Of a DNA stretch of 24,000 bases, positions 324 through 14,055 are shown in pieces. The position numbers were made by a program, and so were the translations under genes. This DNA comes from Faecalibaculum rodentium. GTDB taxonomy: Bacteria; Bacillota_I; Bacilli_A; Erysipelotrichales; Erysipelotrichaceae. Where the stretch lies: the NCBI RefSeq assembly GCF_001564455.1, contig NZ_CP011391.1, positions 2,091,391-2,115,390 of the forward strand, written 5' to 3'. The first letter of the stretch is position 1, and the number at the start of each line of letters is the position of its first letter. The notes below the pieces were generated by a model that was not told where the DNA came from, searched no databases, and worked only from the letters and a program-made list of their open reading frames with translations.

Positions 324-1522
324 GCCTCTGTCCCCTTTTCATCAGATGCCGATGATGGCTGACCGGCTTCGCTGTTATCCGACCGTATACCGGCTTCAGC
401 CGCTCGGTCCAGATAGAACTGTTCAAAGGCTCTGGCCGCTGCCTTGATTTCATATCCTGCTTCTGCAATCTCCTGAGTCGTATTGCGACGATGCAGGCGG
501 CTTTCATCGACCGTCTTCAGAATGGCGTTCGCCCAGATCTCCGGGGAAGATTCCAGGGGTATATACTGCGTCAGTTCCTTGAGCGGCAGCTCCCGGGCCA
601 CCGCTGTGGATGTGATCACCGGCAGACCCGTTGCCTGGGCTTCCACCCCGACCACCGGCAGACCTTCGAAGAAGGAAGGCAGGACAAAGACATCCATGGC
701 ATTCATCAATGCCGGGATGTCTTTTCGCAAGCCCAGGAACATTACGGAATCCTCCAGGCCCAGAGTCTTCACTTTGTCCCGGATCTCCGGTTCCAATTCG
801 CCGGCCCCTGCCAGCAGCAGGATTGCCTCTGGACTCTTCCGGTGCACCGCTGCAAAGATATCGATGAGAAAGGAATGGTTTTTCTGCAGGCTGAACCGTC
901 CCACGTGCCCCAGAACCGGGGTATTTTCCGGGATCCCCAGCAACTCTCTGGTTTTCTTTCGCAGCGCCGGGTCCAGCCTAAACCGGTCAGTATCCACCGC
1001 GTTGCGAATCACCGTATACCGCTGGTCCTGGATCACGGACTTCGGGAATTTCCATTCAGCCGCCAGATCCGAACAGGCGAGATAATCCGTGGGGTACTTC
1101 AGCAGATACGGAATGGATAGAGTCTTGATGACGTGATATTTCAGGTTTTTGAATCCCCCGCAGTGGGAGTGCACCACCCGGATTGGTACCTCTGCCTCTG
1201 CCGCCAGCTTCGCGCCTTCCATCAGGGCATAGGTGCTCCCGGAATGAATGTGCACAATGGGATAGGGATGCCTGGACAGGAAGTCCTGCACGGATTCCCG
1301 GAAGACCTTGTTGTTGTTTTCTCCGAAGGGATGATCATACGTGAATACCTGTCCGCCCATGGATTCGATCTCCGCCTTCAGGTCCGGATTGTCGCAGTTG
1401 AAGGGTGTCAGAAAATCCAGCTGCACCTTCTTGCGGTCCATGTTCCGGTACATGTTCATCAGGAAGCTTTCCTGACCGCCGTTGGCCATGGGTTCCCGGA
1501 AGACCTCCAGCACCCGGATCAT
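320..1522 (-). CDS. Glycosyltransferase, GT-B fold (GT4/GT1 family)
   Basis: 400-aa ORF. N-terminal MIRVLEVF..ANGGQESFLMNMY and C-terminal motifs (VGRFSLQKN, FVLPSFFEGLPVVGVEAQATGLPVI) are typical of GT4 retaining glycosyltransferases. ATG at 1522..1520 overlaps the GT2 stop as ATGA. Confidence 0.85.
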   Translation of the reverse strand: MIRVLEVFREPMANGGQESFLMNMYRNMDRKKVQLDFLTPFNCDNPDLKAEIESMGGQVFTYDHPFGENNNKVFRESVQDFLSRHPYPIVHIHSGSTYALMEGAKLAAEAEVPIRVVHSHCGGFKNLKYHVIKTLSIPYLLKYPTDYLACSDLAAEWKFPKSVIQDQRYTVIRNAVDTDRFRLDPALRKKTRELLGIPENTPVLGHVGRFSLQKNHSFLIDIFAAVHRKSPEAILLLAGAGELEPEIRDKVKTLGLEDSVMFLGLRKDIPALMNAMDVFVLPSFFEGLPVVGVEAQATGLPVITSTAVARELPLKELTQYIPLESSPEIWANAILKTVDESRLHRRNTTQEIAEAGYEIKAAARAFEQFYLDRAAEAGIRSDNSEAGQPSSASDEKGTEA

Positions 1523-2400
1523 TGTGCTTTCTCCACCCGGGGGTCAAAGGTCAGCCCTTCCCGGGATCCGGACCAGATGATGCCCAGCCGCTCCAGTTTG
1601 TGGTCCGGCGCCTTGATCAGCACCCGCGCAGAATGATAGAGGATTTTCGCTCCCTGGTACAGGATCCGGCTCCCCTTCTCTTTCTTCGCGATATAGACCT
1701 CATTGCGGTAGGCAAAGCGGTATCTGGGCAGTCTTGCAGCGGCATCGGTGGCAATGTTGGACCCTTCGTTGTTGGCAGTCTTGTGAATGACCGTGCTGGC
1801 CGGTACATACCAGCAGGGAAGCATCTTCGAGAGCCGCCTGGTGTACTCCACGTCATCCCCCCAGATGAAGAACTCGGAAATGGGCAGACCCGCTTTACGG
1901 ACAGCCGCAGCCCGCAGCAGAAGGGACACGAAAGTCGCCTGGCGGCAGCGCTGTGGCTTGTCGGCATCCAGGGCGCCTTCCAGCAGTTTCTGTTCGTTCA
2001 TCCGGCAGCGGGTTCCGTCTGTCCACAGCACCCGGGAGGACAGGAACCCGAAATCGGGATGGGCTTTGGCCACCCGCATAAGCTGTGTCAGGGAATCCGG
2101 CTGCACGATGCAGTCGTCGTCCATGATCCAGAAGTATTCATACTTCTGTTTCAGAGCTGTCTTCAGGGCAAAGTTGAACCCCCCTGCCCCTCCGAGGTTC
2201 GCTCCTGTATTGTGATAAATGATCACTCCCTGATCCACAAAGTCCTGCAGAGTATCCTGCGTTCCATCTGTGCTTGCATTGTCAATCACGATGATGTCAC
2301 ATGGGGTCTGGCTGCAGATTAGAGCTTTGATGCACTCCTTGAGCAGGTCCTTACGATTGTATGTGACAATCAACGCCGCCGTTTCAGCTGTGGATATCAT
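1519..2400 (-). CDS. Glycosyltransferase family 2 (GT-A fold)
   Basis: 293-aa ORF. It has LIVTYNRKDLLKECIKAL..IIVIDNASTDGT and FWIMDDDC (DxD-type) motifs. AAAGGAG RBS lies about 10 nt upstream of the ATG at 2400. Confidence 0.85.
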   Translation of the reverse strand: MISTAETAALIVTYNRKDLLKECIKALICSQTPCDIIVIDNASTDGTQDTLQDFVDQGVIIYHNTGANLGGAGGFNFALKTALKQKYEYFWIMDDDCIVQPDSLTQLMRVAKAHPDFGFLSSRVLWTDGTRCRMNEQKLLEGALDADKPQRCRQATFVSLLLRAAAVRKAGLPISEFFIWGDDVEYTRRLSKMLPCWYVPASTVIHKTANNEGSNIATDAAARLPRYRFAYRNEVYIAKKEKGSRILYQGAKILYHSARVLIKAPDHKLERLGIIWSGSREGLTFDPRVEKAQ

Positions 2401-3613
2401 TGGGCAGCATCTCCTTTCTTCTCTCAGTTAACTTGATATAACTGCCTCCAGCCAGAATAAATGGGTTATATAGTGGATTGATAAGCCGGACTTCCACGAA
2501 TGAGAAGAGCAGAATCACCACAAAGAAGGCCAGATACAACATGTCGTGGCGCCGATACAGATCCAGTACCACCTGACGACACCAGCTGAATACCAGCAGC
2601 AGGAAAATCAGACCATAGTTTAGCAGAATGTTCAGATAGGAACAATCGACATAGAGATATTGCATACCAGGCTTGTAAGTGATACCCTGACCTGCCCAGA
2701 CAATGCTCTGACCAAAAAAGGACAGGCCATACTTCTGCCAGGCTTCCGCTGCATTGGCAAGCCGCCCGGAGAGGATGTCGTTGAGTTTTCCCATGAATCC
2801 TGCGCCCTGGTACAGGCCAGCCAGCAGCATCGCAACGATGGTCAGGATCACCGGCAGCCAGAGAACGACTAGCTTCACCCACCGGTTTTCCAGCCAGTCA
2901 AGCCAGCTCGGTTTCTGCCACCAGGTCAAGGTAATGACAAGCACGAATATAGTAGTGAAGAATGCCATTTTTGTGTCGGTGAGAATGAACAGAGCCGTGG
3001 CCAGCTGCAGGAGGAAGACGAAGATCCAGCCATTGAGACGCTTTCGTTCCAGGTGTAGAAAGAGCATGGATGCAAACACAAACAGGACTGGGGCGCTGGT
3101 GACCCAGGTGAAGCCCAGGCTGTAGCGGATGCGTTCTGTGTCCATGATCACATTGGGAAACAGGCCCAGGGCTGCAAAGAGCGGTATCATGGTCAGTGTA
3201 GCGGTCTGGATGATGAGCACCACCCGGAACAGTGTCTTCCGGGGCAGCACTGCCATGGAGCCAACAGCGAGCATCAGAATCATGAATTCCGTACTGCGGG
3301 AAAAGAAAAAGACCAGTCCCGTCACAGCCAGGTAAATCACAAACGGCCAGAGGCGGTACTGTCTAAGTCCCAGGGCACAGAGAATGCACAACGCCATTGC
3401 CGCATAGGATGCATAGCGCAGAACTAGAAAGACGGTGTCATAAATCTGGTTATAGTATTCGGAGGCAGATTCAATGAGCATTACATTGCCCAGCCAGGAA
3501 GACCCCAGGAAAAGTGCCAGGACAGTGCAAAGAATCAGTACCTGGTACTGTCGATAAAAACAGCCAAACCCGGAATCAGCGAAGCGTTCTGTCAATGTCT
3601 CGAAAACTGTCAT
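2384..3613 (-). CDS. Polytopic membrane protein, probable polysaccharide polymerase (Wzy/O-antigen ligase-like)
   Basis: Very hydrophobic multi-TM ORF located between GTs and the flippase. I prefer the ATG at 3613 (MTVFETL...), which is preceded by AAGGGAG at good spacing, over the track start at 3631. The function call rests on context and topology only. Confidence 0.55.
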   Translation of the reverse strand: MTVFETLTERFADSGFGCFYRQYQVLILCTVLALFLGSSWLGNVMLIESASEYYNQIYDTVFLVLRYASYAAMALCILCALGLRQYRLWPFVIYLAVTGLVFFFSRSTEFMILMLAVGSMAVLPRKTLFRVVLIIQTATLTMIPLFAALGLFPNVIMDTERIRYSLGFTWVTSAPVLFVFASMLFLHLERKRLNGWIFVFLLQLATALFILTDTKMAFFTTIFVLVITLTWWQKPSWLDWLENRWVKLVVLWLPVILTIVAMLLAGLYQGAGFMGKLNDILSGRLANAAEAWQKYGLSFFGQSIVWAGQGITYKPGMQYLYVDCSYLNILLNYGLIFLLLVFSWCRQVVLDLYRRHDMLYLAFFVVILLFSFVEVRLINPLYNPFILAGGSYIKLTERRKEMLPNDIHS

Positions 3614-3614
3614 A

Positions 3615-4394
3615 TCAGAAGCTCCCTTCATACTTTTTTCCGAAGAATTTCGCTTTCAGAAACGCTGTCCCCTTCTTCACCCAGGGAACCGGTTCCATGG
3701 AAATCACAGGGACTTCTCTGTAAGTCAGGTGATTGGTGCTGATCCAGACGTCTAGGAGCAGTTCAGAAATTCGTCCAAACAGCCTGGCCTGAAACGCATC
3801 ATACCGCCGGTAATCTACTTCCTTCTGTAGCTGTTTTAATACCCCGAATAGAAATGTGCAGTACTTGTCTGCAAGCTCCTTTTTCATGATGAACATATTG
3901 AACATATGACTGGATGTGGATTTCAAATGCCGGTCAAAAGCCGGTAGATACTCGGGATACTTTCTGGCGATAATATCTCGGGTTTTATCCAGATCTTCTT
4001 TGTAGTGGGTATGAGCGTAATGATCCCCGACAGATTCTATATAATAGTGCCTCTTTTTGGGCAGGATGATATCCGTGTTCTCCAGCAGCTTTTCCACCTC
4101 TTTGGTGGTCAGGACCGAGTCAAAAGGTGTTTCTCCCTTGTGCTTACCCTTGAAATGACGTCGGTAATGAGCCAGGCCGATGTAGTCGGTCACCAGGTTC
4201 TTCCAGCCCCAGTACAACCCTGTCAATTCGCAATAGTAGGGATTCAGACTCGATATATTGTCCCCATCGTCATCCCGCTGATAGCCAATAGAGGTTTTGC
4301 CGGCTGCACCAACCTGAACAGGTAGATACATAGAATCACTGGGGATGGTATAGGGCTTGTGTGCGGCAGTAATAATTTTGATCAAAAAAATCAC
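3615..4394 (-). CDS. DUF4422-type putative glycosyltransferase
   Basis: 259-aa ORF with IITAAHKPY, CELTGLYWGWKN and HYRRHF. It is a paralog of the partial gene at 1..323. The track start is GTG (4394..4392), overlapping the flippase TGA as GTGA. An alternative TTG at 4385 sits 6 nt after GAGGTGA. Confidence 0.8.
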   Translation of the reverse strand: MIFLIKIITAAHKPYTIPSDSMYLPVQVGAAGKTSIGYQRDDDGDNISSLNPYYCELTGLYWGWKNLVTDYIGLAHYRRHFKGKHKGETPFDSVLTTKEVEKLLENTDIILPKKRHYYIESVGDHYAHTHYKEDLDKTRDIIARKYPEYLPAFDRHLKSTSSHMFNMFIMKKELADKYCTFLFGVLKQLQKEVDYRRYDAFQARLFGRISELLLDVWISTNHLTYREVPVISMEPVPWVKKGTAFLKAKFFGKKYEGSF

Positions 4395-5845
4395 CTCGGT
4401 TTCTCACATGTTTTTAATAATTTATTCACAACGCTCATGACAATAGACTCTCGGCAGATCAGCAGTGTCAGCACGCAAGTTCCAAAAAACAACAAGGCGC
4501 TGACAGCCAGCTGCCAGAACAGGCTGGAAAGCTGCAATCCTCTCAATCCCCATAATACGAGACTGCCAGCGAAAATCATCAGGATGAGCTCTTTGAACTC
4601 GATGGTCTGAATGATGGATGTCAGCAGTTTACGTAGATACCAGAACTGAAGCAGTGTGACAGCAAACTCCGCACAAAGTGTACCGATGGCTGCGCCAGAA
4701 GCTCCGAGAGATGGTATGAGCAGCAGGTTAAGCAGAAAGTCTACTACTGCTCCGAATATTACAGAGCGAAGTACCAGTATTTCCTTCCCGGTGGGGACTA
4801 GAACCTGAATCCCGGTAATGTTGGAGAGACCGATAAAGACAATGGTGGGCATGAGAATGATCATCGGTGCCACTGCAGGCAGATAGCCCGGTCCTGATAA
4901 AAACTCCACCACCGGTCTGGCATAGACAGAAAAGTAAATGCAGCAAGGGATGGAAAACAGTAGTACAAAGGAGAAGGCCTTTGATACCAGTGACAGGAAT
5001 TCTTTCTCTTTTCCCTGCTCATAATAATAGGAGAGTCTGGGCAGTAGTACAGTCCCCAGCGAGGTCACCAGTGTGACCAGAATGGTCTTGATCTTGATGG
5101 CTGCGTTGTAGTATCCCACCACTTCGTTATCCTTTATGACTCCCAGCATCACCGTATCAAGGTTTGTATAGACGGTGGTTGCAACAGACATGAAAAAGAA
5201 GGTGAAGATGGGATACAAGTGCCGTCGAAAATTCCAGGGTCTGCAGGGATGTAGATTAACCAGTTTCCGCAAGCGAATGAAGTTGAACACAGCTGATCCA
5301 AAGGAAGATATAACTGTGACCAATCCGTACCAGAGTACATCCCCGGAATTACGGACAAGCAGAAACATGAGAGCCAGCCCCAGGGCCTTGAAGAGTACTG
5401 ATACAAATGTGATGTAGGAATACTCTTCCAAGGCCTGGTATACCCAGTTCACGCCGATAACATTCAATAAAATAGCCGCTGAACAGATGGTGTAGAGGGT
5501 GGATTCTTCCCTGAATGTCGGTACGAACCACAAGAGGAGAAAGAATGCTGTATAGGAAATGAGCGCCATGATCAGGTTAATAATCAGCAGTTCCTGAACC
5601 GTTTTAGATAATTTTTCTTTATTATCCCGGACCTGGGCACATGCCCGGATCCCGTATGATGGTACTCCTAACATTGCAACCATGGTAAAGTAGGAAATCA
5701 ATGAGGTGCCCATCGCTACTGCCCCCGTACCGTTGGGTCCTAAAATCCGCGAAACGTAAGGGAAAGTTATAAGTGGGAATAAGACCGAAGAAGCAGTTAA
5801 AAAAAAGTTCATAAAGAAGTTCAATGCTATTGATTTATTTTTCAT
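4391..5845 (-). CDS. Oligosaccharide flippase, MOP/Wzx family (polysaccharide biosynthesis protein)
   Basis: 484-aa polytopic ORF. The N-terminal FPYVSRILGPNGTGAV motif is typical of Wzx-like proteins. ATG at 5845..5843 has no obvious SD upstream and lies 13 nt after the acyltransferase stop. Confidence 0.85.
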   Translation of the reverse strand: MKNKSIALNFFMNFFLTASSVLFPLITFPYVSRILGPNGTGAVAMGTSLISYFTMVAMLGVPSYGIRACAQVRDNKEKLSKTVQELLIINLIMALISYTAFFLLLWFVPTFREESTLYTICSAAILLNVIGVNWVYQALEEYSYITFVSVLFKALGLALMFLLVRNSGDVLWYGLVTVISSFGSAVFNFIRLRKLVNLHPCRPWNFRRHLYPIFTFFFMSVATTVYTNLDTVMLGVIKDNEVVGYYNAAIKIKTILVTLVTSLGTVLLPRLSYYYEQGKEKEFLSLVSKAFSFVLLFSIPCCIYFSVYARPVVEFLSGPGYLPAVAPMIILMPTIVFIGLSNITGIQVLVPTGKEILVLRSVIFGAVVDFLLNLLLIPSLGASGAAIGTLCAEFAVTLLQFWYLRKLLTSIIQTIEFKELILMIFAGSLVLWGLRGLQLSSLFWQLAVSALLFFGTCVLTLLICRESIVMSVVNKLLKTCEKPR

Positions 5846-5858
5846 AATAATTTATATA

Positions 5859-6954
5859 CTAAGGCACTAAAGGCTTGAATATCCGGATTTTTCTTAGTAG
5901 ATTGATTAATAAGATAGAAATAAAAATAATTAACCAAGGACCAATGAGTCGCCACCAAATTGACGTTTGACTGATGTCCATGAAATGCAATAAACCTAGA
6001 AGAACTAGCTGATGAAGTAAATAGATACCAAAAGTATATGGCCTGAACCATTCAGAAAATCTAATAATTGCTAATTGAATTCTATTTTTTCTATTTTGGC
6101 ACTTGTTATAGATCTGTCGAATCAGTATAAAAACAGCAATAGACTGAAGATAGCAAGGGAGATTGTAATAGCCTTTGAAAGTCTCTACAATGTGATTCGC
6201 ATTTATTGATAAGTAGTAAGTTGGAATTAGTTGCATAATAAACCCTATTGTACCCAATATATAAAGTACAATTCTTGTTCTTTTTCTTATGCTGTAATTA
6301 CCAATTAAATATCCTATTATAAAATATAGATAATAGTTTGCAGATACAGGCATCAACTGAGATACAGAGATTTCAGAAAAAATGTATTACAAATAAATAC
6401 AGCTACAACATTCAGCAAGAATCCCAAAACTGCAAGATATTCAAAAACATGCTTCCTGGATGCATTGGATATATTGGAGAATAACGGAACTGTTATGCAG
6501 ATAGTAAAATAAGGAATGAAAAACCAATATACACTCACTAAGTTTCCATTAATTAGACCATCAATTATTACAGGGAAAGTAATTTCTAAGAGAGGAAACC
6601 ATTCTAATACTATACTTTGATAATAAACGCCTAATACACTCCAAAAAAAATAAGGAATTAATACTTTCATTGCCCGATTCCTCAAGAATCTCTTTGTTCC
6701 ATTCCTTTCTATACTTGGAATCAAAGTTATACCGGAAATCATAAAAAAATTGGAACAGCCCAATAGAGAACTGTTTCAATTATATTTGCTGTCATCCAAT
6801 ATCGAGCTTTCGGATCAAAATCCCAGAAGCATGTATTCACATGCAGATATACAACAGCTATAGCAGCTGCTACACTTAAAAAATCCACAGTCTTATCAAA
6901 ATTTGTGAGGTGTTGGTTCAGCATCTTATCCTTATAATATTCCATAAAAATCAC
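5859..6954 (-). pseudogene. Acyltransferase family 3 (O-acyl/acetyltransferase) gene split into three frames
   Basis: Fragments 6954..6739, 6763..6353 and 6356..5859 (71+136+165 aa) together make one typical 10-TM acyltransferase_3 protein of about 370 aa. Adding one T at the A7/T7 run (6743..6749) restores the conserved AVPIFFMISGITL. Adding one T at the A6/T6 run (6377..6382) joins the last two pieces as ..NTFFSEISVSQLMPVSANYY... Confidence 0.7.
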
Positions 6955-6983
6955 TCTTATCTTTTGACAATTGCGGTATCAAG

Positions 6984-8441
6984 TCACCGCAAGAAATTAT
7001 CTATGTAGTAATTGCTAGGAGAATACAACATGGTGTCCAGTTTTTCCAAACCATACTGTTCAACTAGGGAGTCCTCGGTTTTAAATAGATCCGTTCCCAA
7101 TCCTAATCTCTCCGAATCATACTGAACTCCCAAGGCACTCAAAGTCGTTGGAAACATATCCAAAGCGATAAACTCTCTTGAATCGCTTCTCTGAGGTATG
7201 GTCGCCGAATTAAGAATAGTATAATAAATCGATCTTTTAAAGTCTGAGTCAATTTTTTTTGACCATTCGTCATCCATTGTCAAATGATCACCAACGAGAA
7301 TAATTGTTGTATTAGGATACCACTCTTGAGTCTCACACCATTTCACAAACGAATAGACTCGTTTATCAGAACAGCGGATTACATTGGAATATTGGCTGTC
7401 TTCAGTCTGCTCGCAATCCGGACACAAATATCCATCATAAAAATGAGTATCTGCGGTCAAAATTGTCAGGTTGAATGGTTGCTTATTTTTTAAATCAGAC
7501 AAGATGTTTTTGGCATAATCAAACAGCTTTTTATCCTCAAAGCCCCAGTTTTCCCAATACTCTTGTGAAATCAGGCCGTGATTCTTTGCCCAATACACAT
7601 CTTTGATATCGTAGTCCCCATGACTTTTGAAGTAGGTGCTTCGGCTGGAATAATTTGCATCGGATCCAAGCAGGAACATATTAGTATATCCGTTGTCTTC
7701 CAGAATATTCCCTAACGCATAGGCGCCAGGAATCACAGTAGCATTTGGATCAAAGTCATCCTGTGCTCTGAAACTCTTGATATTGATCCCTGCAGTCTGT
7801 GCTACAAGAGATCCCATTGTCCATCCCATGGCTCCCGAAGCCATGAACGAGGATCCTGCTCCAAAGTTTATCCCTTCTTTTCTCAGACGAGATAGATTAG
7901 GTATCAAACTTTTTTCAAAATCCCCTCCATTATTGATGTCATCATAAGTCTGCTCCATCGATTCCATATATATATAGATCAAATTCCGCTTCTGCTCTGG
8001 AAATGAAAAATGAACAGTTTTAGGATCAACATAATAATCCTGGTAAATTGTACCTGACCCCTGTTGTGCAGTCAGATAAGGACCTATTTTTGAAGCTTTG
8101 AATAAGTAGAATGAAGATAACGAGAAACAAAGCACAACGATAATCGTTGAGATTAATATTTTCTTATTATTCTGAGTTGTGAATACTGTTTTATACAAAC
8201 CCCAAAATAATAGAACTGTACTTATTATCGGTAAAACCACACACCAGAAAATGCCCTTCATCACTATTTTTTTGTCAGCATTCCCTAATGGCTGAGCAAG
8301 ATTAAATAGTATTTGTTCAAACGATACGTTGGCAAAATTAGATTGCAGATAAAACCCACTAAAGAAAAAAAGGCAAGTCAATAGAATTAAAATAACAGAA
8401 ATTATAATAACGACATATCTTTTCCATTTGTTTTGTCTCAT
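6984..8441 (-). CDS. LTA synthase / sulfatase-family (alkaline phosphatase superfamily) membrane protein, probable phosphoglycerol or similar transferase
   Basis: N-terminal TM helices are followed by an extracytoplasmic sulfatase-like domain (NLIYIYMESMEQTY, GWTMGSLVAQTAG, TADTHF, ILVGDHL). The track start at 8480 is TTG. The first ATG is at 8441 (MRQNKWKRY...). Confidence 0.8.
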   Translation of the reverse strand: MRQNKWKRYVVIIISVILILLTCLFFFSGFYLQSNFANVSFEQILFNLAQPLGNADKKIVMKGIFWCVVLPIISTVLLFWGLYKTVFTTQNNKKILISTIIVVLCFSLSSFYLFKASKIGPYLTAQQGSGTIYQDYYVDPKTVHFSFPEQKRNLIYIYMESMEQTYDDINNGGDFEKSLIPNLSRLRKEGINFGAGSSFMASGAMGWTMGSLVAQTAGINIKSFRAQDDFDPNATVIPGAYALGNILEDNGYTNMFLLGSDANYSSRSTYFKSHGDYDIKDVYWAKNHGLISQEYWENWGFEDKKLFDYAKNILSDLKNKQPFNLTILTADTHFYDGYLCPDCEQTEDSQYSNVIRCSDKRVYSFVKWCETQEWYPNTTIILVGDHLTMDDEWSKKIDSDFKRSIYYTILNSATIPQRSDSREFIALDMFPTTLSALGVQYDSERLGLGTDLFKTEDSLVEQYGLEKLDTMLYSPSNYYIDNFLR

Positions 8442-8797
8442 AATTTCCACTATACAACCTGATTTCCAGAATATATCCAAAAAGTGACTTCTTATTTTTT
8501 ACTGTTTCTTTTAACTCGTAGAATATCATTGTTTTTATAATTTCATTTATTAAAATCGTTATATGTTAGATATAGTTACAAAGTTATATCAGTCAGGTCT
8601 AAGAGAAGGAAAAAGAGAATCGAAACAAGTGAAGGAAATATCTTAAATAGAACTGACTATTCCGATAACCTTTAGAATATTTATATTTAACAATATTATC
8701 ATTAATGCACTGATTAAAGTGTTATTTTATACTGTCAGACCGCTTATTTGATATAGAGCGAAATTTGCAATTTTTCAGTCTTTCACACTATCTCAGT

Positions 8798-11692
8798 TCA
8801 CCAACTCTCCACCACCATCTCCAGCAGCTCCGCAGCTGCCACTTTATCCTTCACCCGAATCAGATGGTTCCAGGCATCCTCCGGACCTAACAGGTTGATG
8901 CCGCCATCCCACACCAGTTCCCTGTCGATCACCGCAAACGGATCAACCGGATCATCCAGCTCCCGGACGGAAAAACCTGCTTCTTTCAACCGGCGGATCG
9001 CTGCATCCTTGGTCCCTTCCCAGCCATCATCGGCAGTAGTGAAAATGACAACGTCCACTTCATTCCTGCCTTCCATAGCCTGAAGCACTTTCTCTGCCCT
9101 GGAAAGAGTGATGGCAGGACTGGAAATTACGACTTCCTTTCTGGACTCCCGGAGATCCTGGAGGAAGGCATCCAGATAGTTGTCCAGGTCGAATATCGCA
9201 TTGACGGTCTGGGATACCGCAGGATCTGTTGTCTGCAGCTGCCAGGCCGCCTTTTTGTATGTCTTCAGACGCTTTCGATACATCCCCTGGAATACCGGAA
9301 TCCGCCGGTCAATGTAGTCATATACCTGCACTGTCTTCTTTCCGGGGTAGTCCCTGTTCAGCCGGCCGAGGAACTGCAGAAGCAGCCCTTCAAAGGCAAT
9401 GGGTGATACAAGAAACAGGGTATCGAGCCGGGGATAGCTGAATCCTTCTCCGATTTTCTGGCCTGTGGCAATGATGAGAACTGATTCGTTGTCCGGAACT
9501 CTCTTCAGCTGACTCAGCTGTTCCCTGTTCTCTTTCTCAGAGTTGTCTCCATAAACCAGGAACAGATGATCTGCACTTCCTTCCAGGTGTCTGGCCAGCG
9601 TGGCTGCATGTGATTTCAGCCTTACGAATATGGCACAGGTATGACCTTCTGCAAGGGCCTGACGGACATCACCTGCAATCAGTTCGTTTCTCACAGGATC
9701 CTGTGCAATGTATTCATACAGCTCGTAGATGGCTGGCTTTTCTTCCCGCAGGCAGAGGCTGCGGGTAAACCGCGGGATAAGGAGCCTCTGCAGGTTCTGG
9801 CTCTTCGCCTTATCCATGGCACTGTAGGTGTGCCGAATATCGCCAATGAACATGGTGATAAGAGGATCCAGCTTGTCCGCCCGTTTCGGTGTGGCTGTCA
9901 TGCCGTAGAGATACGCAGGAGAAATCCGGTCCAGGATCTTTCGAAAGGTCGGAGATGCTGCATGGTGGCATTCATCCACGATGACCATTCCATAGCGGTC
10001 AGGAATGGAATCCATGTTTCCCAGTGTCTGTGCCATGGCGATATCCACAAGGCCTGTCATGGTGTTTTTGGATCCCTTCAGGACACCGATGTGGCTTTTT
10101 CGCCTTCTGGTTTTCCCAGCCTTTGTCCGATACTCCGGAAGGGGTTCATCAAATTTCAAAAACTCCTCCAGCTCTTGCTGCCACTGTTCCAGAAGTGCGG
10201 TCTTTTCAATGAGAATCAGCGTATTGACCTTCCTGTGCGCTATCAGGCTGGCTGCCACAACGGTTTTTCCGAAGGAAGTGGCGGCAGAGAGAATTCCATA
10301 GTCGTATTTCAGCAGTTCTTCCTGCGCTGCCTGCTGTTCCTGTCGGAGCGAACCCTGGAATTCAACGCGAAGCCATGCTCCCTTTTGCCGTTTGTCTCTG
10401 ATCCGATAGTCGATGCGGCTGCTTTCCAGCCGGTGTTTCAGCGTATCCCGTATTCCACGGGGCAGCCGGATATAGCCGTCCACATCGCTGCCGATATACA
10501 GGATGCGGGGTGTGTTCCAGTTGGAATATCCAAAGCGTGTGTTCTCATACCAGGCGGGATTTGCCATGGCTGCCAGATTCCGAATCTGATTCTGCAGTCT
10601 GGGATGGAGTGTGAGGGCATCTACATAGATGCCATCGGCGAGGATGATGGTCAGAGTTCCATAGACATCTTCGGGATGGAATTCACTGTTCTGCTTCCAG
10701 GGATCCGGGCGATACTGGCTAGTCATAGCCAGTCTTCCCGTCTCAACCGCAAGTTCCTGGCCCCAGGTTTGGATATACTGCTCCATTTGTTCTCTGGTGA
10801 GCTTCTGACACTCTTTCATGGCCTGCCACTGGTCGGGGATGGCATTCCAGTGTTCATCCACAAACGCTGTGTTGCCTTCTGTCAGCGAAGCACCGTGGAG
10901 GGGCAGTGCGATGAGACTGCCGAGATCCTCTGTCTGGTCCTGTGCGGGAAACATCCGGTCGTAACACTGGTAGGACCTGAGAGGAACCAGCTGGCTGCCT
11001 TTGTTCAGCAGCAGCATACCAAACTGCCTGGCTGTGGAAGCTTTGACAGGTTCCTTGAAAAAGATCCAGACATGAGATCCCTTTCCGGAACGGGATCTTT
11101 CCACAAGGCAGTTGATTCCCAGCTGGGTGCAGATCATCCGCAGGGTTTCAGCTTCCTTCCTCGTCTGGGCTGGATCAGAGGCTTCGCTGTGAGCGTCAAA
11201 GTCAAAAACCAGAAACCGGCAGGTCCCATCAGGATGCAGTGGATAGATTCCAACAGGATTTGAGGACCCCAGCAGATGCCGGAGCAGGATTTTAGGGTTG
11301 ATTGCCTCCCAGCCCCTGTGCAGACACTTGCTGCAGGGAGATTTTGGATTCGTGTGTTTAGGACAGACGCCGGCATTCCAGCGATACAGACACTGGGGAT
11401 ACCATCCTCCGTTTTTGCCTCGTTTGGCGTACACATCCATGCGGCCCCAGAACATAGAAAAGAAGAATCGGACCATGTATTCGGTGATCCATGGAAACTG
11501 GATCCGGGCTCCCTGATCCGGATCTGTATCAGGGGCTGATGGCATGGGCACTGGCAAGGATATATCATGAGACTCAAGCTGTTTTCTTAATTGTCTGTTT
11601 TCCTGTTCGAGACTTCGATATTTCTTTGCGAGTTCAATCAATGCCTGTTGAAGATATTCCATGGCTTTATGATAACAAGTTTGTGTCGTCAT
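8798..11692 (-). CDS. AEP (archaeo-eukaryotic primase)-like domain fused to an SF2 DExH helicase, with a C-terminal PLD-like-looking domain; conflict/defence-type protein
   Basis: N-terminal coiled coil (LEQENRQLRKQLE). Cys/His cluster CLYRWNAGVCPKHTNPKSPCSKCLH. AEP motifs FLVFDFDAH (DxD), SGKGSHVWIFF (sGxGxH) and LIALPLHG. Helicase motifs TSFGKTV (I), VIVDECHH (II), GMTATPKR (III) and QFLGRLNR (VI). C-terminal ISSPAIT..VVIFTT..FAVIDRELVWDGGINLLG. The start is ambiguous: track 11731 is TTG, and the ATGs at 11692 and 11662 both lack an SD. Confidence 0.85.
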   Translation of the reverse strand: MTTQTCYHKAMEYLQQALIELAKKYRSLEQENRQLRKQLESHDISLPVPMPSAPDTDPDQGARIQFPWITEYMVRFFFSMFWGRMDVYAKRGKNGGWYPQCLYRWNAGVCPKHTNPKSPCSKCLHRGWEAINPKILLRHLLGSSNPVGIYPLHPDGTCRFLVFDFDAHSEASDPAQTRKEAETLRMICTQLGINCLVERSRSGKGSHVWIFFKEPVKASTARQFGMLLLNKGSQLVPLRSYQCYDRMFPAQDQTEDLGSLIALPLHGASLTEGNTAFVDEHWNAIPDQWQAMKECQKLTREQMEQYIQTWGQELAVETGRLAMTSQYRPDPWKQNSEFHPEDVYGTLTIILADGIYVDALTLHPRLQNQIRNLAAMANPAWYENTRFGYSNWNTPRILYIGSDVDGYIRLPRGIRDTLKHRLESSRIDYRIRDKRQKGAWLRVEFQGSLRQEQQAAQEELLKYDYGILSAATSFGKTVVAASLIAHRKVNTLILIEKTALLEQWQQELEEFLKFDEPLPEYRTKAGKTRRRKSHIGVLKGSKNTMTGLVDIAMAQTLGNMDSIPDRYGMVIVDECHHAASPTFRKILDRISPAYLYGMTATPKRADKLDPLITMFIGDIRHTYSAMDKAKSQNLQRLLIPRFTRSLCLREEKPAIYELYEYIAQDPVRNELIAGDVRQALAEGHTCAIFVRLKSHAATLARHLEGSADHLFLVYGDNSEKENREQLSQLKRVPDNESVLIIATGQKIGEGFSYPRLDTLFLVSPIAFEGLLLQFLGRLNRDYPGKKTVQVYDYIDRRIPVFQGMYRKRLKTYKKAAWQLQTTDPAVSQTVNAIFDLDNYLDAFLQDLRESRKEVVISSPAITLSRAEKVLQAMEGRNEVDVVIFTTADDGWEGTKDAAIRRLKEAGFSVRELDDPVDPFAVIDRELVWDGGINLLGPEDAWNHLIRVKDKVAAAELLEMVVESW

Positions 11693-11762
11693 AATGCAAG
11701 AAAGCCAAACCCTATGCCCTGTCCGGAGCAAAATGCCGGTTCTTTCTCAGGTGTCTGAATCT

Positions 11763-11771
11763 CTGCTATAC
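11763..11771 (+). promoter_or_regulatory. Candidate extended -10 element (TGcTATACT) for the small acidic ORF
   Basis: TGCTATACT occurs at 11763..11771 with a weak -35 (TTTCTC, 11743..11748). It overlaps the start of a tandem ACTCAGGAAG/ACTCAGGAAA pair (11769..11788). Motif match only. Confidence 0.3.
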
Positions 11772-11892
11772 TCAGGAAGACTCAGGAAAAATTGCTGCAA
11801 CAGTAACGTGTGGATGCCTGTCGCCTGCTTTGGATAAAGCGGGTGAATCATGGCGTATCCCTGCTTCTGTGCAGAGCAGGAAAGAACAGTCC

Positions 11893-12123
11893 ATGATTTT
11901 AGATGATTTGAACTTTGACGATATTGATCTGGATGTTTTGTTTGGGCGTGATTATGATGGCAAGGAATTTGACATGACGGAATATGTCGGTGTATGGAAT
12001 GGATATGATGTGTATCTCGGGTATGCAGATGGAGAAGATCATGTCCTGCTGGTCAAGGGGAAACGGGCGTGGTATCCCAACAGTATGGACCTCGATGAGA
12101 TCAAATACATCTTTGATCTCTGA
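11893..12123 (+). CDS. Small highly acidic hypothetical protein (76 aa)
   Basis: ATG at 11893 is preceded by AGGAAAG. MILDDLNFDDIDLDVLFGRDYDGKEFDMTEYVGVWNGYDVYLGYADGEDHVLLVKGKRAWYPNSMDLDEIKYIFDL has 19 D/E against 6 K/R. It is followed by the hairpin terminator at 12210..12253. The track start at 11830 is TTG. No family was recognised. Confidence 0.45.
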   Translation: MILDDLNFDDIDLDVLFGRDYDGKEFDMTEYVGVWNGYDVYLGYADGEDHVLLVKGKRAWYPNSMDLDEIKYIFDL

Positions 12124-12209
12124 GACTGACTGATTGACTGTCACAAGACGGGCGAGGTCGGTCGTGTCTTTCCCAGGACTGGTTTTGCTATTTTTCCTAC
12201 AGCGATTTT

Positions 12210-12253
12210 AAAAAGCCTGGCGCTTTCACCACCGAAGCACCAGGCTTGTTTTT
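12210..12253. terminator. Bidirectional rho-independent terminator-like hairpin (repeat copy R1)
   Basis: AAAAAGCCTGGCGCTT-TCACCACCG-AAGCACCAGGCTTGTTTTT forms a 12-bp stem (one C-A mismatch). An A-run precedes it and a T-run follows, so it can terminate the + strand small ORF and the - strand TAC operon. Confidence 0.6.
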
Positions 12254-12506
12254 ATGAATCATTCAATTCACCTGCTTAAGGAAGTTCAAAATGAGATTCT
12301 GGCGGCAACAGAGATAGCTGTTTCAATCACAGTCATCAAAGTGTCAGGTTACCAAGCCTTCCATTTCATGATAAGAAGCTGCTATAAGAAATCCAAAAGC
12401 TGGAAACTGCTCGATTTATTGTTGGCAAACGACCAGTAGTTCGGCATATGGCCGGAGTCCACCCCATTGCGAATGAGCAGATTTCATTTCAATCGTTTCA
12501 GAAGTG

Positions 12507-12923
12507 TCAGGAATCCGATTTTCGTTCGAGCACAATATCATGATCCAGATCCAGACGACTGCAGTCAATGATTGGGAGCTTCACTTCCGATATTGTGTAG
12601 GATGTAATAGTCTGGACTGCCTCACGTACGTAAGGGAATGCAACAGCCATGAATCTTTTAATATGAGAGTTGATAGCATCAATATCATCTTCTTCAAAAT
12701 CCCGAATCAGTCCCTCATCCTGCAGGGAAAAAATACTGGTAAATTCCATTGGAACTTCCTTGTCATGCTTTCCGCACAGCAAAATCTGGATCCCAACCGA
12801 GAGAAGGCGGTTTTTCCTTCTGTAATCATAACCGGTCACCCCTATTACAATTTCTTCGTAAGGATGTACTTCAGAGAGTTCATATTCAAGCTTTTCAAGC
12901 TTAAAATCCAAATAAGTAAACAT
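12507..12923 (-). CDS. SecB-like chaperone (third gene of a toxin-antitoxin-chaperone cassette)
   Basis: 138 aa. AFPYVREAVQTITSYTISEVKLPIID matches the conserved SecB C-terminal core as I recall it (E. coli SecB [28 protein letters not shown]; M. tuberculosis Rv1957 LYPYIREYV). The N-terminal beta-strand-like LDFKLEKLEYEL and LLSVGIQILLCG resemble the SecB fold pattern. AGGGGGG RBS; the ATG lies 9 nt after the antitoxin TAG. Confidence 0.65.
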   Translation of the reverse strand: MFTYLDFKLEKLEYELSEVHPYEEIVIGVTGYDYRRKNRLLSVGIQILLCGKHDKEVPMEFTSIFSLQDEGLIRDFEEDDIDAINSHIKRFMAVAFPYVREAVQTITSYTISEVKLPIIDCSRLDLDHDIVLERKSDS

Positions 12924-12932
12924 ATTCCCCCC

Positions 12933-13403
12933 CTACGCCTGCAGAAACACAGCTTGATTCTTAGCTCTGTCCACTGTCTCGACAGGTACGTATACATCAA
13001 TCGCAGATGGTCTGCTTTGCCAGCTGTTTTCTTCAGATTCCCATTTCCCGATATCATAACAGTCAAGGGCATAGGCTCGAATCTTGTGACATTCTCTCGC
13101 TTCATCTTTTCGCTTAGGTTCAGTAACGGCGCTCTTCCTGAACTGGTACAACTCGCTCACCAGCTCGGGGTGTCGATCCAGCAGGTAAAGAGTCCTGCTG
13201 GCGGCTCCTTTGATTGGGTTGGCCCCCTGTTCCCATTTTTCAATGGTTTTTTCGCTTAGCCCCAGCATCTTTGCCATCATTCTCTGTGAAAGTCCCAGTT
13301 TCTGCCGAAGGGCTTTTGCAAAACTATTGGTCGTAATCTCTTCTGTGTTTGTAAACTCATTTTTACAAACAGGCATCTTTTTCAAAGCTTCTATATCAAA
13401 CAT
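12933..13403 (-). CDS. XRE/HigA-type helix-turn-helix antitoxin with a roughly 70-aa C-terminal extension
   Basis: 156 aa. HTH core FAKALRQKLGLSQRMMAKMLGLSEKTIEKWEQGANPIKGAASRTLYLLDRHPELV. This is followed by an aromatic/charged tail (..YALDCYDIGKWESEENSWQSRPSAIDVYVPVE..). Strong RBS AGAGGAGAG upstream of the ATG at 13403. Confidence 0.8.
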   Translation of the reverse strand: MFDIEALKKMPVCKNEFTNTEEITTNSFAKALRQKLGLSQRMMAKMLGLSEKTIEKWEQGANPIKGAASRTLYLLDRHPELVSELYQFRKSAVTEPKRKDEARECHKIRAYALDCYDIGKWESEENSWQSRPSAIDVYVPVETVDRAKNQAVFLQA

Positions 13404-13421
13404 ATTCTCTCCTCTAAATAT

Positions 13422-13442
13422 CTTCAGGTCTTTGACCTGAAG
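13422..13442. promoter_or_regulatory. Perfect 9-bp inverted repeat between toxin and antitoxin genes
   Basis: CTTCAGGTC-TTT-GACCTGAAG, read directly. It ends 18 nt upstream of the antitoxin ATG, just 5' of its SD on the mRNA. Confidence 0.4.
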
Positions 13443-13495
13443 CAGTCAATCCACATCTTTCACGCCAGGGTTCCACTATTTTTTTCCGAAATCGG

Positions 13496-13921
13496 TCATT
13501 CTTTTTCACTGGCTTCCCGGACTTTCTCCAGGTTGCTGACCAATTTACGAAGCTGATTCTTCTCGTTGGATGTCAAATCAGTCTTCGGCTTCTTTCCTGC
13601 ATGTTTATGATAAATATGACAGATAAATGAAGTCTCGCAAAGAGCTGCAACCAGAATGATCCTGTATCCTCCACGTTTGCCACTATTGCGCTTTGGATCT
13701 TTGCAGCGCATTTTATAAACAGCCAGATCCGAATATTTCTCTGACTGAATCAATCTGCTTCCAGAACGATCATTCTCGAGATCATCCGCTACATCCTGAA
13801 GTATCTGATTGTATCCTGACTGCCCAAGTCCCGTTCTCTTCAGATCTTTCTCCAGGTCAAACCCATAATCCTTCAGTTCCCGCAGGAGATCAGGACTGTC
13901 AAAAGTATCAGTCAGATTCAT
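13496..13921 (-). CDS. RelE/ParE-superfamily toxin, HigB-2-like
   Basis: 141 aa. The core AVYKMRCKDPKRNSGKRGGYRIILVA...ICHIYHKHAGKKPKTDLTSNEKNQLRKLV resembles the ..KGKGKRGGSRIIYY...IYGKNEMSDL..QRKQL pattern I recall for Vibrio HigB-2-type toxins. It is the first gene of the cassette. GGGGATGG RBS. Confidence 0.7.
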   Translation of the reverse strand: MNLTDTFDSPDLLRELKDYGFDLEKDLKRTGLGQSGYNQILQDVADDLENDRSGSRLIQSEKYSDLAVYKMRCKDPKRNSGKRGGYRIILVAALCETSFICHIYHKHAGKKPKTDLTSNEKNQLRKLVSNLEKVREASEKE

Positions 13922-13937
13922 AATCCATCCCCAATCG

Positions 13938-13968
13938 CCCTATTTAGTAGGGTATTCAAATCATACCA
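13938..13968 (-). promoter_or_regulatory. Candidate TAC promoter (extended -10 TGGTATGAT) with adjacent small inverted repeat
   Basis: On the minus strand, TGGTATGAT (13968..13960) is followed immediately by CCCTA-N5-TAGGG (13952..13938), about 17 nt upstream of the toxin ATG. Motif-level evidence only, and the -35 is weak. Confidence 0.35.
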
Positions 13969-14010
13969 TATTCTGCCTTTGAAAAAGATATATATTACCG
14001 TTATGGATTC

Positions 14011-14055
14011 AAAAAGCCTAGCGCTTTACTCCTGAAGCACCAGGCTCATTTTCTG
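14011..14055 (-). terminator. Rho-independent terminator-like hairpin downstream of the FMN reductase (repeat copy R2)
   Basis: AAAAAGCCTAGCGCTT-TACTCCTG-AAGCACCAGGCT; on the minus strand the stem is followed by TTTTTG. It shares the blocks AAAAAGCCT, GCGCTTT and GAAGCACCAGGCT with R1 at 12210..12253. Confidence 0.55.

Follow-up and report, generated by a model that had tools for sequence, protein, structure and literature searches.

A solitary gene of Faecalibaculum rodentium joining an AEP primase-polymerase, an SF2 helicase and a PLD-fold tail: a candidate conflict enzyme

The window analysed here, a stretch of 24,000 nucleotides from the F. rodentium contig NZ_CP011391.1, carries a gene in which an archaeo-eukaryotic primase (AEP) domain, an SF2 helicase and a PLD-like tail are joined in a single polypeptide (Table 1). 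This architecture had been proposed in a sequence-only reading of the locus and was upheld by the open reading frame list, Pfam and Foldseek. Counted from the ATG at 11692 the protein has 964 aa, with its stop codon at 8798-8800, and the reading frame stays open as far as a TTG at 11731. Since the N-termini of all homologs, including that of the 93%-identical P0001, align to M11 of the window protein, translation probably begins at the ATG at 11662, which would give a protein of 954 aa. Neither ATG is preceded by a Shine–Dalgarno-like purine run when the sequence is read directly, as had been claimed. An ORF of 540 aa on the opposite strand (9641-11263) was rejected as a gene and is taken as a by-product of the gene's composition because it lies wholly antisense to this strongly supported gene.

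The gene lies between a polysaccharide locus and a RelE-like/MqsA-like HTH cassette. The window ORFs scanned included no integrase and no replication gene, and the earlier description of a stand-alone gene between polysaccharide genes and a toxin-antitoxin cassette holds within the window. The sole structured repeat near the gene brackets the adjacent toxin-antitoxin cassette, and no origin-like iterons or terminal inverted repeats were found around the gene itself. A recombinase or a remnant of one was absent from the window, from L010 and from L001; searches next to the window gene with 'c1' serine recombinases (tblastn) gave nothing better than E=0.07, and a recombinase remnant was rejected. 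L010, which carries the gene at the same chromosomal position, has the complete terminator hairpin (AAACGGTCTGACAGT...ACTGTCAGACCGTTT). The homology between the window and L010 stops within this hairpin, at the start of low-GC DNA (blastn), and the terminator arm is present in a single copy in the window. The comparison with L010 yields a dN/dS of 0.108 and a dS of 0.31, close to the dS of the flanking core genes PFL (0.22) and TAL (0.30). By these rates the solitary window copy is functional, old and under purifying selection, co-diverging with the flanking core genes, and its protein evolves faster than those of its core neighbours (ω 0.02-0.03).

Table 1. Features of the primase-helicase gene in the window.
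Feature	Residues	Position in window	Strand	Evidence
Whole gene: AEP primase-polymerase, middle domain, SF2 helicase, pseudo-PLD tail		8798..11692	minus	ORF list, Pfam, homolog N-termini, dN/dS
Coiled-coil/leucine-zipper-like N-terminal segment	about 11-45	11558..11662	minus	weak Pfam matches, heptad-like pattern
AEP (PrimPol-clade) primase-polymerase domain	73-305	10778..11476	minus	PF22548 match, PADLOC, PDB, invariant residues
Cys4 + His cluster in N-terminal part of AEP domain	C101, C110, C120, C123, H139	11276..11392	minus	invariance
Conserved middle domain, fold without assignment	about 325-445	10358..10720	minus	conservation
SF2 helicase/translocase core	about 448-800	9293..10351	minus	ResIII, phrog_16 and PDB matches, motifs
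PLD-fold C-terminal domain	about 830-964	8801..9205	minus	PLDc_2, MitoPLD alignment, Foldseek, residue census
Hairpin terminator of the gene, surviving 5′ half		8731..8745	minus	blastn of window against L010, sequence comparison

The N-terminal segment gave weak Pfam matches of coiled-coil type only (TSC22, YabA, RIMB1_N). Its heptad-like pattern is conserved, with R26, L28, E31, N32, L35 and L39 invariant in a 16-sequence alignment, and it is likely a dimerisation element. The assignment of the following primase domain is firm: the AEP-TOTE profile (PF22548) matches with E=7.7e-75 and 251.9 bits against a cut-off of 27, over positions 2-229 of 230, which settles the question of whether the N-terminus might lie outside the AEP fold. 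The PADLOC models of the CRISPR-associated PrimPol (E=7.9e-53) and of RT_UG10 (E=9.6e-5) match the same domain, as do PDB entries 7nqd and 7nqf (E=2e-15), both the Marinitoga CRISPR-associated Prim-Pol (CAPP). Invariant in the 16-sequence alignment, and among 220 sequences from three distant clades, are FDFD (D164/D166), SGxGxH (H207) and D245. The DxD and His motifs named earlier (DFD and GKGSH) are thus genuine, whereas ALPLHG (262-267), proposed as the third catalytic motif, is conserved yet contains no acidic residue; D245, in YDRM, is more likely the third catalytic acid. The Cys4/His cluster, noted before together with the coiled coil, proved invariant in the same two sets of sequences and is presumed to form a zinc-binding element.

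For the conserved middle domain no match was obtained in Pfam, none by sequence in the PDB and none in the PDB by Foldseek. Its predicted model has a pLDDT of 73, and the weak matches in BFVD (E of at least 0.037) were to phage SSL2/SF2 helicases and MutS-domain-I-like proteins. The helicase core is recognized by ResIII (residues 448-604, E=2.6e-22, 79.9 bits against a cut-off of 22.5), weakly by Helicase_C (residues 680-780) and by the phrog_16 DNA helicase (E=4.1e-50). In the PDB it matches XPBII (6p4f, 6.5e-21), SauUSI (7clg, 1.7e-20) and UvsW (2oca, 2e-17). The motifs GKT (475-477), DECHH (573-577), TAT (599-601) and QxxGRxxR (773-780) are invariant in the 16-sequence alignment and in the 220 sequences, and the complete XPB/Rad25-like SF2 motor read from the sequence is therefore real. 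The likeness to XPB/Rad25, UvsW and RadD resides in the motor domain with its identical motif set, whereas the scores fall far below the equivalog cut-offs for XPB (NF045503, 39 against 610 bits; TIGR00603, 22 against 329) and RadD (30 against 720 bits), the domains around the motor are different, and the family is no conserved housekeeping one. An XPB/Rad25 ortholog was rejected on these scores.

The same likeness could point to a host enzyme of DNA repair or damage tolerance, in which stalled chromosomal forks would be re-primed or restarted by a PrimPol combined with a fork-remodelling helicase. Re-priming after damage is known for PrimPol-type AEPs of other systems, the closest helicases (XPBII, UvsW, RadD) belong to repair and remodelling, and the window copy co-diverges with core genes. 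In addition, a PrimPol-RT defence protein is reported to contribute to an oxidative damage response as well (PMC12439943). Such a role appears improbable given the missed XPB and RadD cut-offs, an ω well above that of the core neighbours, gene surroundings that differ in nearly every species sampled, and the carriage of relatives by transposons, recombinase modules and plasmids; moreover, their neighbours are of the Abi, toxin-antitoxin and restriction kinds and not of the repair kind.

At the C-terminus, a PLDc_2 match was obtained for 12 of the 13 family members (best E=4.5e-7), and the predicted model of the tail (pLDDT 82) retrieves PLD3, NucT, Zucchini and Nuc in Foldseek with a probability of 1.00 and TM values of 0.64-0.73. 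Alignment to MitoPLD (4ggj) and a residue census showed that the tail retains D923-x6-G930-G931-x-N933 with V916 and P918 at the catalytic His and Lys positions, for which reason it is predicted to be non-catalytic. A PLD fold without the HxK dyad, as described from the sequence, is thus confirmed. The catalytic His is absent from all 196 close relatives in the census, an intact HQK occurs only in one distant relative (L110), and the tail is missing from the relatives in Proteobacteria. The window protein and P0001-P0003 form a subclade in which not even a substitute His occupies the PLD Lys position. We infer that the tail derives from a PLD nuclease that still exists in rare relatives, became a scaffold or DNA-binding module here and was lost altogether in Proteobacteria.

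The gene is an ordinary member of a family already named in Pfam and at NCBI ('TOTE conflict system archaeo-eukaryotic primase domain-containing protein' or 'DEAD/DEAH box helicase family protein'), with nothing essential setting it apart. Full-length collinear homologs of about 980 aa are 47-52% identical, with one at 93%, and share the AEP, ResIII/Helicase_C and PLDc_2 architecture. The family numbers more than 4,300 matches, mostly in Lachnospiraceae, Ruminococcus and Clostridium; it is abundant in gut Firmicutes and occurs in at least 483 species-representative genomes. Members also occur on plasmids of Proteobacteria and Bacillus and on mobile elements of the Bacteroides type, and 40 plasmid records contain near-full-length relatives. 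The literature searched yielded no experimental work on any family member and no mention of 'AEP-TOTE' or 'PF22548'. None of 50,697 phage records carries the full architecture at a coverage of at least 80%, and a prophage replication module was rejected on this ground. The 'viral' matches in IMG/VR proved to lie in Bacteroides-type mobilizable elements or in defence islands rather than in phage replication modules.

TOTE conflict systems were reportedly described by Aravind, Iyer and Burroughs in 2022. The AEP domain of the window protein falls in the Pfam family named after them, as had been suggested in the sequence-only reading, whereas the system proper is not there. The name stands for TPR, OB, TBP and Effector, with the TPR gene typically fused to an OB/cold-shock domain (PMC12458937). 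No TPR, OB or TBP partner was found among the window ORFs or in the top 25 Pfam families of 133 immediate neighbours of relatives; neither a TPR-OB/CSD gene nor a TBP gene was found in the window or beside the relatives (about 75 species), and a TOTE operon was rejected. A TBP-like domain could conceivably still be hidden in the fused middle domain.

Among other known systems, CAPP (PDB 7NQD/7NQF) is the closest solved relative of the AEP domain, and CAPP and the DRT7/UG10 primase are its closest models in the defence library. Their contexts (Cas1/Cas2, reverse transcriptase) are not found around the window gene, and its AEP domain, unlike theirs, shares a chain with an SF2 helicase and a PLD-like tail. 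DRT7 is a proven defence system in which primase (AEP) catalysis is required for phage defence. An SF2 motor combined with a PLD fold is also seen in the type IV restriction enzyme SauUSI (PDB 7CLG), which is dimeric through its PLD domains, and in NgoAVII/CglI-type enzymes. SauUSI has an active N-terminal PLD domain with HxK and a methyl-cytosine-reading domain and no primase, whereas the window protein has its PLD fold at the C-terminus, without HxK, and an AEP domain in addition. The search of PADLOC-DB v2 returned domain-level matches only (PrimPol, PbeA, mREase_IV, HamB) and no full-length system model, so that assignment to a known defence system was rejected.

A census of 133 immediate neighbours of relatives in about 75 species comprised 114 different Pfam families, which implies that there is no obligatory partner gene and answers the question of neighbourhood conservation in the negative. 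By raw counts, genes of the Abi, toxin-antitoxin, restriction and recombinase kinds are abundant in these neighbourhoods: Schlafen-AlbA_2/HATPase_c_4 7-9, AbiEii 6, Fic 3, Abi_2 2, RhuM 2 and zeta toxin 2, with SoFic, PDC-S01, PDC-S04 and PDC-S05 at 3 each. Distant relatives directly follow McrB-McrC and a BsaXI-like restriction-modification gene, and another follows a RecQ+UvrD fusion helicase. These associations could mean that the protein is the orphan subunit of a complex with a Schlafen-AlbA_2/HATPase_c_4/wHTH protein or with McrBC-like restriction components, inactive or only regulatory by itself. In 6 species a homologous AlbA_2/HATPase_c_4 gene of the same orientation lies 17-36 nt away, either upstream or downstream, and in 8, about 10% of species, it is adjacent; it is the co-oriented directly upstream gene in two distant clades (cross-clade E=2e-49) and on several metagenome contigs, and one relative overlaps McrC by 4 nt. 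We regard an orphan subunit as very improbable, since this partner is missing at about 90% of species loci and purifying selection acts on the window copy in its absence, with all catalytic residues intact.

The absence of a link to mobile DNA, correctly described for the window, does not extend to the family. In 13 species the gene lies directly upstream of a large serine recombinase, with a gap of ~15 nt, in a two-gene module of ~4.7 kb with variable flanks, a position similar to that of the SCCmec Cch operon. Elsewhere a relative is the sole passenger of an element with a tyrosine-recombinase trio: perfect inverted repeats of 171 nt enclose exactly the AEP-helicase gene and three tyrosine recombinases within a split strawberry-notch gene. 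Other relatives are adjacent to TniQ-TniB-TniA or lie in an apparent operon within Bacteroides-type mobilizable elements with relaxase and integrases. Because of this strong link a role in the replication of mobile elements stays alive as the main rival, in which the protein would open and prime the excised circular or the transposing form of small integrative elements and the window copy would be a stranded or domesticated survivor. The plasmid-borne relatives fit this role, and there is precedent in SCCmec, where an operon of primase and helicase genes that precedes the ccr serine recombinases is proposed to serve replication or maintenance of the excised element (PMC7581432). Bacterial AEPs are in general carried by mobile elements (PMC5862659).

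Several observations nevertheless make replication of mobile elements an unlikely function. Neither a recombinase nor a remnant of one lies within reach of the copies in the window, L010 and L001-L005, which are nonetheless intact and under purifying selection, a Resolvase domain occurs in only 15 of the 133 immediate-neighbour proteins, and the neighbourhood survey did not place the homologs consistently inside replication modules. To our knowledge all four linked element types exist widely without the AEP-helicase gene, which would make it an accessory and not a core function. Transposition by TniABQ has no circular intermediate to replicate. Terminal overlap indicative of a circular free form was seen in none of 15 short contigs carrying relatives, and such forms were rejected; contigs of ~5 kb carry the gene paired with AlbA_2 or AbiE and do not represent recombinase modules. 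In pRN1 ORF904-type AEP-SF3 fusions and in the SCCmec CCPol-MP/Cch2 operon primase and helicase are coupled as in the window family, but the window protein has an SF2 motor, not a hexameric SF3/MCM one, and a PLD-type tail, and neither origin-like repeats nor a recombinase were found around its gene. Replication initiators do not typically have an SF2 motor or a nuclease-type tail of the PLD kind, although the statement that replicative primase-helicases use SF3/SF4 and not SF2 motors describes a tendency and no rule, as Kazlauskas et al. reported AEPs fused to remote SF2-like, UL9-like helicases (PMC5862659). When the gene is compared with replicative primase-helicases, a location in a recombinase or replication module is found in other lineages and not in the window, L010 or L001; the motor is of SF2 and not of the hexameric SF3/SF4/MCM type, and no iteron origin or other repeat array was seen near the gene. 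The architecture is also absent from the phage genomes.

We favour the explanation that the window gene encodes a stand-alone, single-chain conflict or defence enzyme acting through helicase-coupled DNA priming from a variable chromosomal spot, and give it a probability of about one half. The stand-alone nature put forward from the sequence has been established above; the defence function is suggested by several lines of evidence. These are the invariance of the AEP and helicase catalytic residues across 220 sequences, purifying selection on a solitary copy, conflict-type neighbours with no obligatory partner, the SauUSI-like helicase and the precedent of DRT7, a non-hexameric SF2 motor together with the absence from phage records, and the filing of the AEP domain under conflict systems by the curators of Pfam and NCBI. 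Against it speak the missing whole-protein model in PADLOC, the lack of a catalytic nuclease or another obvious toxic effector in the window copy, and the tight linkage to mobility genes in several lineages, which would equally fit replication or maintenance of excised elements. If the protein is a defence enzyme, it might dimerise through the N-terminal coiled coil, the PLD-like tail or both, the latter because PLD nucleases including SauUSI dimerise through this domain. The ATP-driven motor, resembling XPB, UvsW and SauUSI, would engage the DNA of an invading or replicating element, whether duplex or branched, and expose single strands, on which the PrimPol domain with its presumed zinc cluster would then prime and extend DNA. 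Such unscheduled synthesis could derail replication or packaging of the invader, and the effector output would be synthesis and remodelling of nucleic acid, not cleavage.

The family is found in the company of mobile DNA and defence genes and most likely has its role in conflicts with foreign DNA. Within it the chemistry of primase and helicase does not vary, in contrast to a decaying nuclease-type tail. A bolder formulation, possible but doubtful at present, is that of a nuclease-free immune enzyme in one polypeptide. Its effector act would be the synthesis of DNA de novo, powered by an XPB-like motor, a mechanism unlike those of restriction, toxin-mediated abortive infection and reverse-transcriptase systems, and the enzyme would have been captured repeatedly by four unrelated recombinase or transposase machineries. 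If true, 'primase-helicase plus recombinase' would rank with the smallest self-mobilising defence cassettes known. A defensive family would protect cells through synthesis or remodelling of DNA and not through its cleavage, a new effector logic beside the reverse-transcriptase (DRT) systems. If it replicates excised elements instead, very small recombinase-borne modules would be autonomous replicons, with a bearing on how genes spread in the gut microbiome.

The AEP-helicase gene of the window is a single long ORF, whose reading frame stays open upstream as far as a TTG at 11731 in the ORF list. Since the N-termini of all homologs, including one of 93% identity, correspond to Met11 of the window protein, alignment makes ATG 11662 the likely start, which would give a protein of 954 aa. 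Direct reading revealed no Shine–Dalgarno-like sequence upstream of either ATG 11692 or ATG 11662. A long ORF antisense to the gene in all likelihood arises from the composition of the AEP-helicase gene and is not itself a gene. The family to which the window gene belongs already has a name in Pfam and NCBI, and the gene is an ordinary representative of it.

Features of the window and its AEP-helicase, loci of two recurrent gene pairings, and divergence from L010, the locus with the 93%-identical copy
Feature	Position or loci	Strand	Evidence or remark
Polysaccharide locus	320-8480		window ORF annotation
Low-GC segment	about 5500-8731		GC 0.31-0.40 vs 0.52-0.59 in flanks
Adjacent ORFs matching Acyl_transf_3	5859-6356; 6353-6763	-	profile positions 188-324; 51-175
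Sulfatase/LTA-synthase-like gene	6984-8480		in the low-GC segment
AEP-helicase gene	8798-11692	-	single long ORF, 964 aa from ATG 11692
AEP primase-polymerase domain	residues 73-305		Pfam AEP-TOTE PF22548, E=7.7e-75
Middle domain	residues about 325-445		36 invariant columns across 21 sequences; strongly conserved
SF2 helicase	residues about 448-800		ResIII 448-604, E=2.6e-22; weak Helicase_C match 680-780
C-terminal tail	last roughly 135 residues		sub-threshold PLDc_2 match, E=4.5e-4
Antisense ORF	9641-11263	+	540 aa
Small ORF without family match	11830-12123	+	97 aa; between AEP-helicase and HTH/RelE pair
Small ORF without family match	12507-12923	-	138 aa; between AEP-helicase and HTH/RelE pair
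RelE-like/MqsA-like HTH/138-aa cassette	12507-13921	-	
Imperfect direct repeat, ~46 nt	12207-12252; 14008-14052		flanks the cassette
MqsA-like HTH gene and RelE-like gene	beyond the two small ORFs		window ORF annotation
FMN reductase, transaldolase, glycyl-radical enzyme and activase	beyond HTH/RelE pair		window ORF annotation
AlbA_2-partnered loci	L013, L017, L045, L049, L059, L064, L106, L115, L179, L181-L183		
Serine-recombinase module loci	L020-L022, L025, L030, L035, L037, L038, L043, L046, L050, L052, L073		
AEP-helicase, window vs L010			dN/dS 0.108, dS 0.31
PFL (flanking), window vs L010			dN/dS 0.022, dS 0.22
Transaldolase (flanking), window vs L010			dN/dS 0.034, dS 0.30

The catalytic residues D164, D166, H207 and D245 of the AEP domain are intact in the window protein, and in a 220-sequence census the primase acids, the Cys4/His cluster, Walker A/B and motif VI proved invariant in all clades. 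Compared with the PDB, the family profile matched 7NQD/7NQF (2e-15) over the primase, 7NQF being the CRISPR-associated Prim-Pol of Marinitoga, and XPBII (6p4f, 6.5e-21), the type IV restriction enzyme SauUSI (7CLG, 1.7e-20) and UvsW (2e-17) over the motor, which PHROGs assigns to phrog_16 'DNA helicase' (E=4.1e-50). The top PADLOC match of the window protein is a CRISPR-associated PrimPol model (E=7.9e-53), and no PADLOC defence-system model was found to span the whole protein. The middle domain has neither a Pfam nor a PDB sequence match; its model (pLDDT 73) found no Foldseek match in the PDB, and a comparison with BFVD gave only weak matches, to phage SSL2-type helicases and MutS-domain-I-like proteins.

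The tail behaves differently. A PLDc_2 match is present in 12/13 family members (best E=4.5e-7), and the tail model (pLDDT 82) matched PLD3, NucT, Zucchini/MitoPLD and Nuc with a Foldseek probability of 1.00 and TM values of 0.64-0.73, as well as TrmBL2 and FAM83, which we take to be PLD-like domains without catalysis. At the catalytic H-x-K positions, located by family alignment to MitoPLD, the window protein carries V916 and P918, and D923-x6-G930-G931-x-N933 is retained. In the census the catalytic His is missing in 196/196 Lachnospiraceae-type members and a canonical HQKFAIID...GG.N occurs in one distant relative (L110), while the proteobacterial clade, with proteins of about 813 aa, lacks the tail altogether. 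The invariance of the primase and motor residues, set beside the loss of the PLD His or of the whole tail, shows primase plus motor to be the conserved core and the nuclease-type tail a decaying accessory. At two loci (L084, 7608-11602, and L087, 10001-13997) tblastn matches the query over about 4.0 kb versus 2.9 kb, which suggests that the gene's 5′ end contains a ~1 kb insertion or has been partly duplicated.

The sequence-only reading had linked the gene to TOTE conflict systems, a name that stands for TPR, OB, TBP, Effector (PMC12458937). When flanking ORFs were called and clustered in 80 species-representative loci of relatives, the commonest neighbour cluster occurred in at most 19/91 loci; the 133 immediate neighbours represent 114 distinct Pfam families, and neither TPR nor cold-shock/OB nor TBP is among the 25 commonest of these. 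Membership of a TOTE operon was rejected: the AEP domain of the TOTE-named family is present, but, by the window ORFs and the neighbours of its relatives, the gene lies outside any TOTE operon. The immediate neighbours are rich in conflict and mobility genes, with raw counts (n=133) of 15 for Resolvase (large serine recombinase), 9 for HATPase_c_4 and 7 for Schlafen-AlbA_2 (both in the same fusion proteins), 6 for AbiEii, 3 each for AAA_14 and Fic, and 2 each for RhuM, Abi_2 and zeta toxin. PADLOC recognized SoFic and the candidate systems PDC-S01, PDC-S04 and PDC-S05 among them, 3 each.

An AlbA_2/HATPase_c_4/wHTH gene adjoins the AEP-helicase in 8 species, upstream in some and downstream in others, and is co-oriented with a gap of 17-36 nt in 6/8. 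The pairing is seen again in two distant clades and in several metagenome contigs of roughly 5 kb, and partners from different clades are homologs of one another (E=2e-49). This gene is a recurrent optional partner, and the two may possibly form a two-gene system. The pairing spans clades whose AEP-helicases share only about 35% identity. Distant relatives are found in clear restriction settings; at L112 (2328-12361) a BsaXI-like R-M gene, McrB, McrC and the AEP-helicase form one tight array, the last overlapping McrC by 4 nt. At L110 (82-12700) the AEP-helicase, the one family member in which an intact PLD HxK was observed, is the last of five co-oriented genes, preceded by those for a 997-aa protein, a 236-aa protein, a 1647-aa RecQ+UvrD/PcrA fusion helicase and a 355-aa protein.

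Several relatives are tied to mobile DNA. In 13 Lachnospiraceae species the AEP-helicase-PLD gene is joined with a large serine recombinase in a ~4.7 kb block with an intergenic gap of about 15 nt; its homology (75-98% nucleotide identity) runs from 15-130 bp 5′ of the AEP-helicase to the 3′ end of the recombinase, and the flanks differ. At one of these loci, L035, another paralog of the recombinase lies at a distance of about 9 kb. On the Yoonia vestfoldensis plasmid pSMR4r-1 (L097) a perfect 171-nt inverted repeat (7735-7905 and 13858-14028) bounds a 6.3 kb element (7735-14028) that contains exactly three tyrosine recombinases, with the AEP-helicase as only passenger, and interrupts a strawberry-notch gene; Gemmobacter has the same arrangement of AEP-helicase and tyrosine-recombinase trio. 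An inward-facing gene starts shortly after each 171-nt arm, so the two ends of the Yoonia element may share a promoter region. The Bradyrhizobium gene directly adjoins TniQ-TniB-TniA; its Sinorhizobium counterpart adjoins a TniQ gene. A full-length relative of 35% identity occurs in IMG/VR contigs that also carry Arm-DNA-bind_5 integrases, a MobA/VirD2 relaxase and an HTH_17 gene, the order being DUF3307 gene, AEP-helicase relative and two integrases. No virion genes were found among the genes examined in these contigs (L099-L109), which are catalogued as viral but, by their relaxase, integrases and HTH_17 gene, look like Bacteroides-type integrative mobilizable elements. Near-full-length relatives occur in 40 plasmid records and in none of the 50,697 phage records searched (at least 80% coverage).

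The recombinase-linked modules agree with a role in the replication of small integrative elements, whose excised forms the enzyme would open and prime, and the SCCmec primase-helicase operon adjoining ccr is a real precedent (PMC7581432). We consider such a role rather unlikely, however: it does not account for the fact that most copies, that of the window included, stand alone, intact and under constraint, nor for the SF2 motor, the attached PLD nuclease-type domain with its canonical form in one relative, the Abi, toxin-antitoxin and restriction neighbours, or the failure to find the architecture in phages. The four linked element types are moreover all widespread without the AEP-helicase gene, which we also count against it. 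It is still more improbable that the AEP-helicase is a host DNA-repair enzyme: this would agree with the helicase similarities but is at odds with both the variable neighbourhoods and the carriage on mobile DNA.

L010 has its gene in the same chromosomal place as the window, in the order PFL, activase, transaldolase, FMN reductase and gene; it is without the toxin-antitoxin cassette, and its downstream DNA differs from that of the window. The dN/dS and dS values of the gene and its flanking genes show divergence in step with the chromosome under purifying selection, so that the window gene is no recent acquisition and no remnant in decay. Neither a recombinase nor the remnant of one was found beside the window gene, nor were origin-like or element-end repeats found flanking it. 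The gene's terminator hairpin is whole in L010; in the window only half of it remains, with the break at 8731, at the start of low-GC DNA.

The low-GC segment, with its sulfatase/LTA-synthase-like gene and acyltransferase pieces, meets the AEP-helicase locus within this hairpin, and unrelated DNA lies there in L010, which suggests a recombination or insertion junction. The two ORFs matching consecutive parts of Acyl_transf_3 are probably a frameshifted or split acyltransferase gene. At the other end of the AEP-helicase gene, homology to L010 stops at 14006 and restarts at 11703, with only 487 bp between in L010, and because of this break the RelE-like/MqsA-like HTH cassette appears to be an indel module of its own. 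The inner copy of the direct repeat flanking it includes a terminator-like hairpin (12218-12231). The 138-aa ORF, which directly follows the HTH gene and shares its strand, may be the third gene of the toxin-antitoxin cassette.

Because the replication and repair explanations leave facts unexplained, we favour the reading of the window gene as a stand-alone conflict/defence enzyme, with a probability of about 0.5. The protein would act as a dimer whose motor would uncover single strands in foreign or replicating DNA, on which the PrimPol would then prime and extend DNA. DRT7 is a precedent for AEP catalysis in defence, and SauUSI, which dimerises via its PLD domains, is one for PLD and SF2 in a single chain.

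In the searchable literature we found no mention of invariant primase/motor chemistry beside a decaying PLD tail, of compact modules that include one of four kinds of recombinase or transposase, or of an optional AlbA_2 partner. These three family-level observations could steer experiments.
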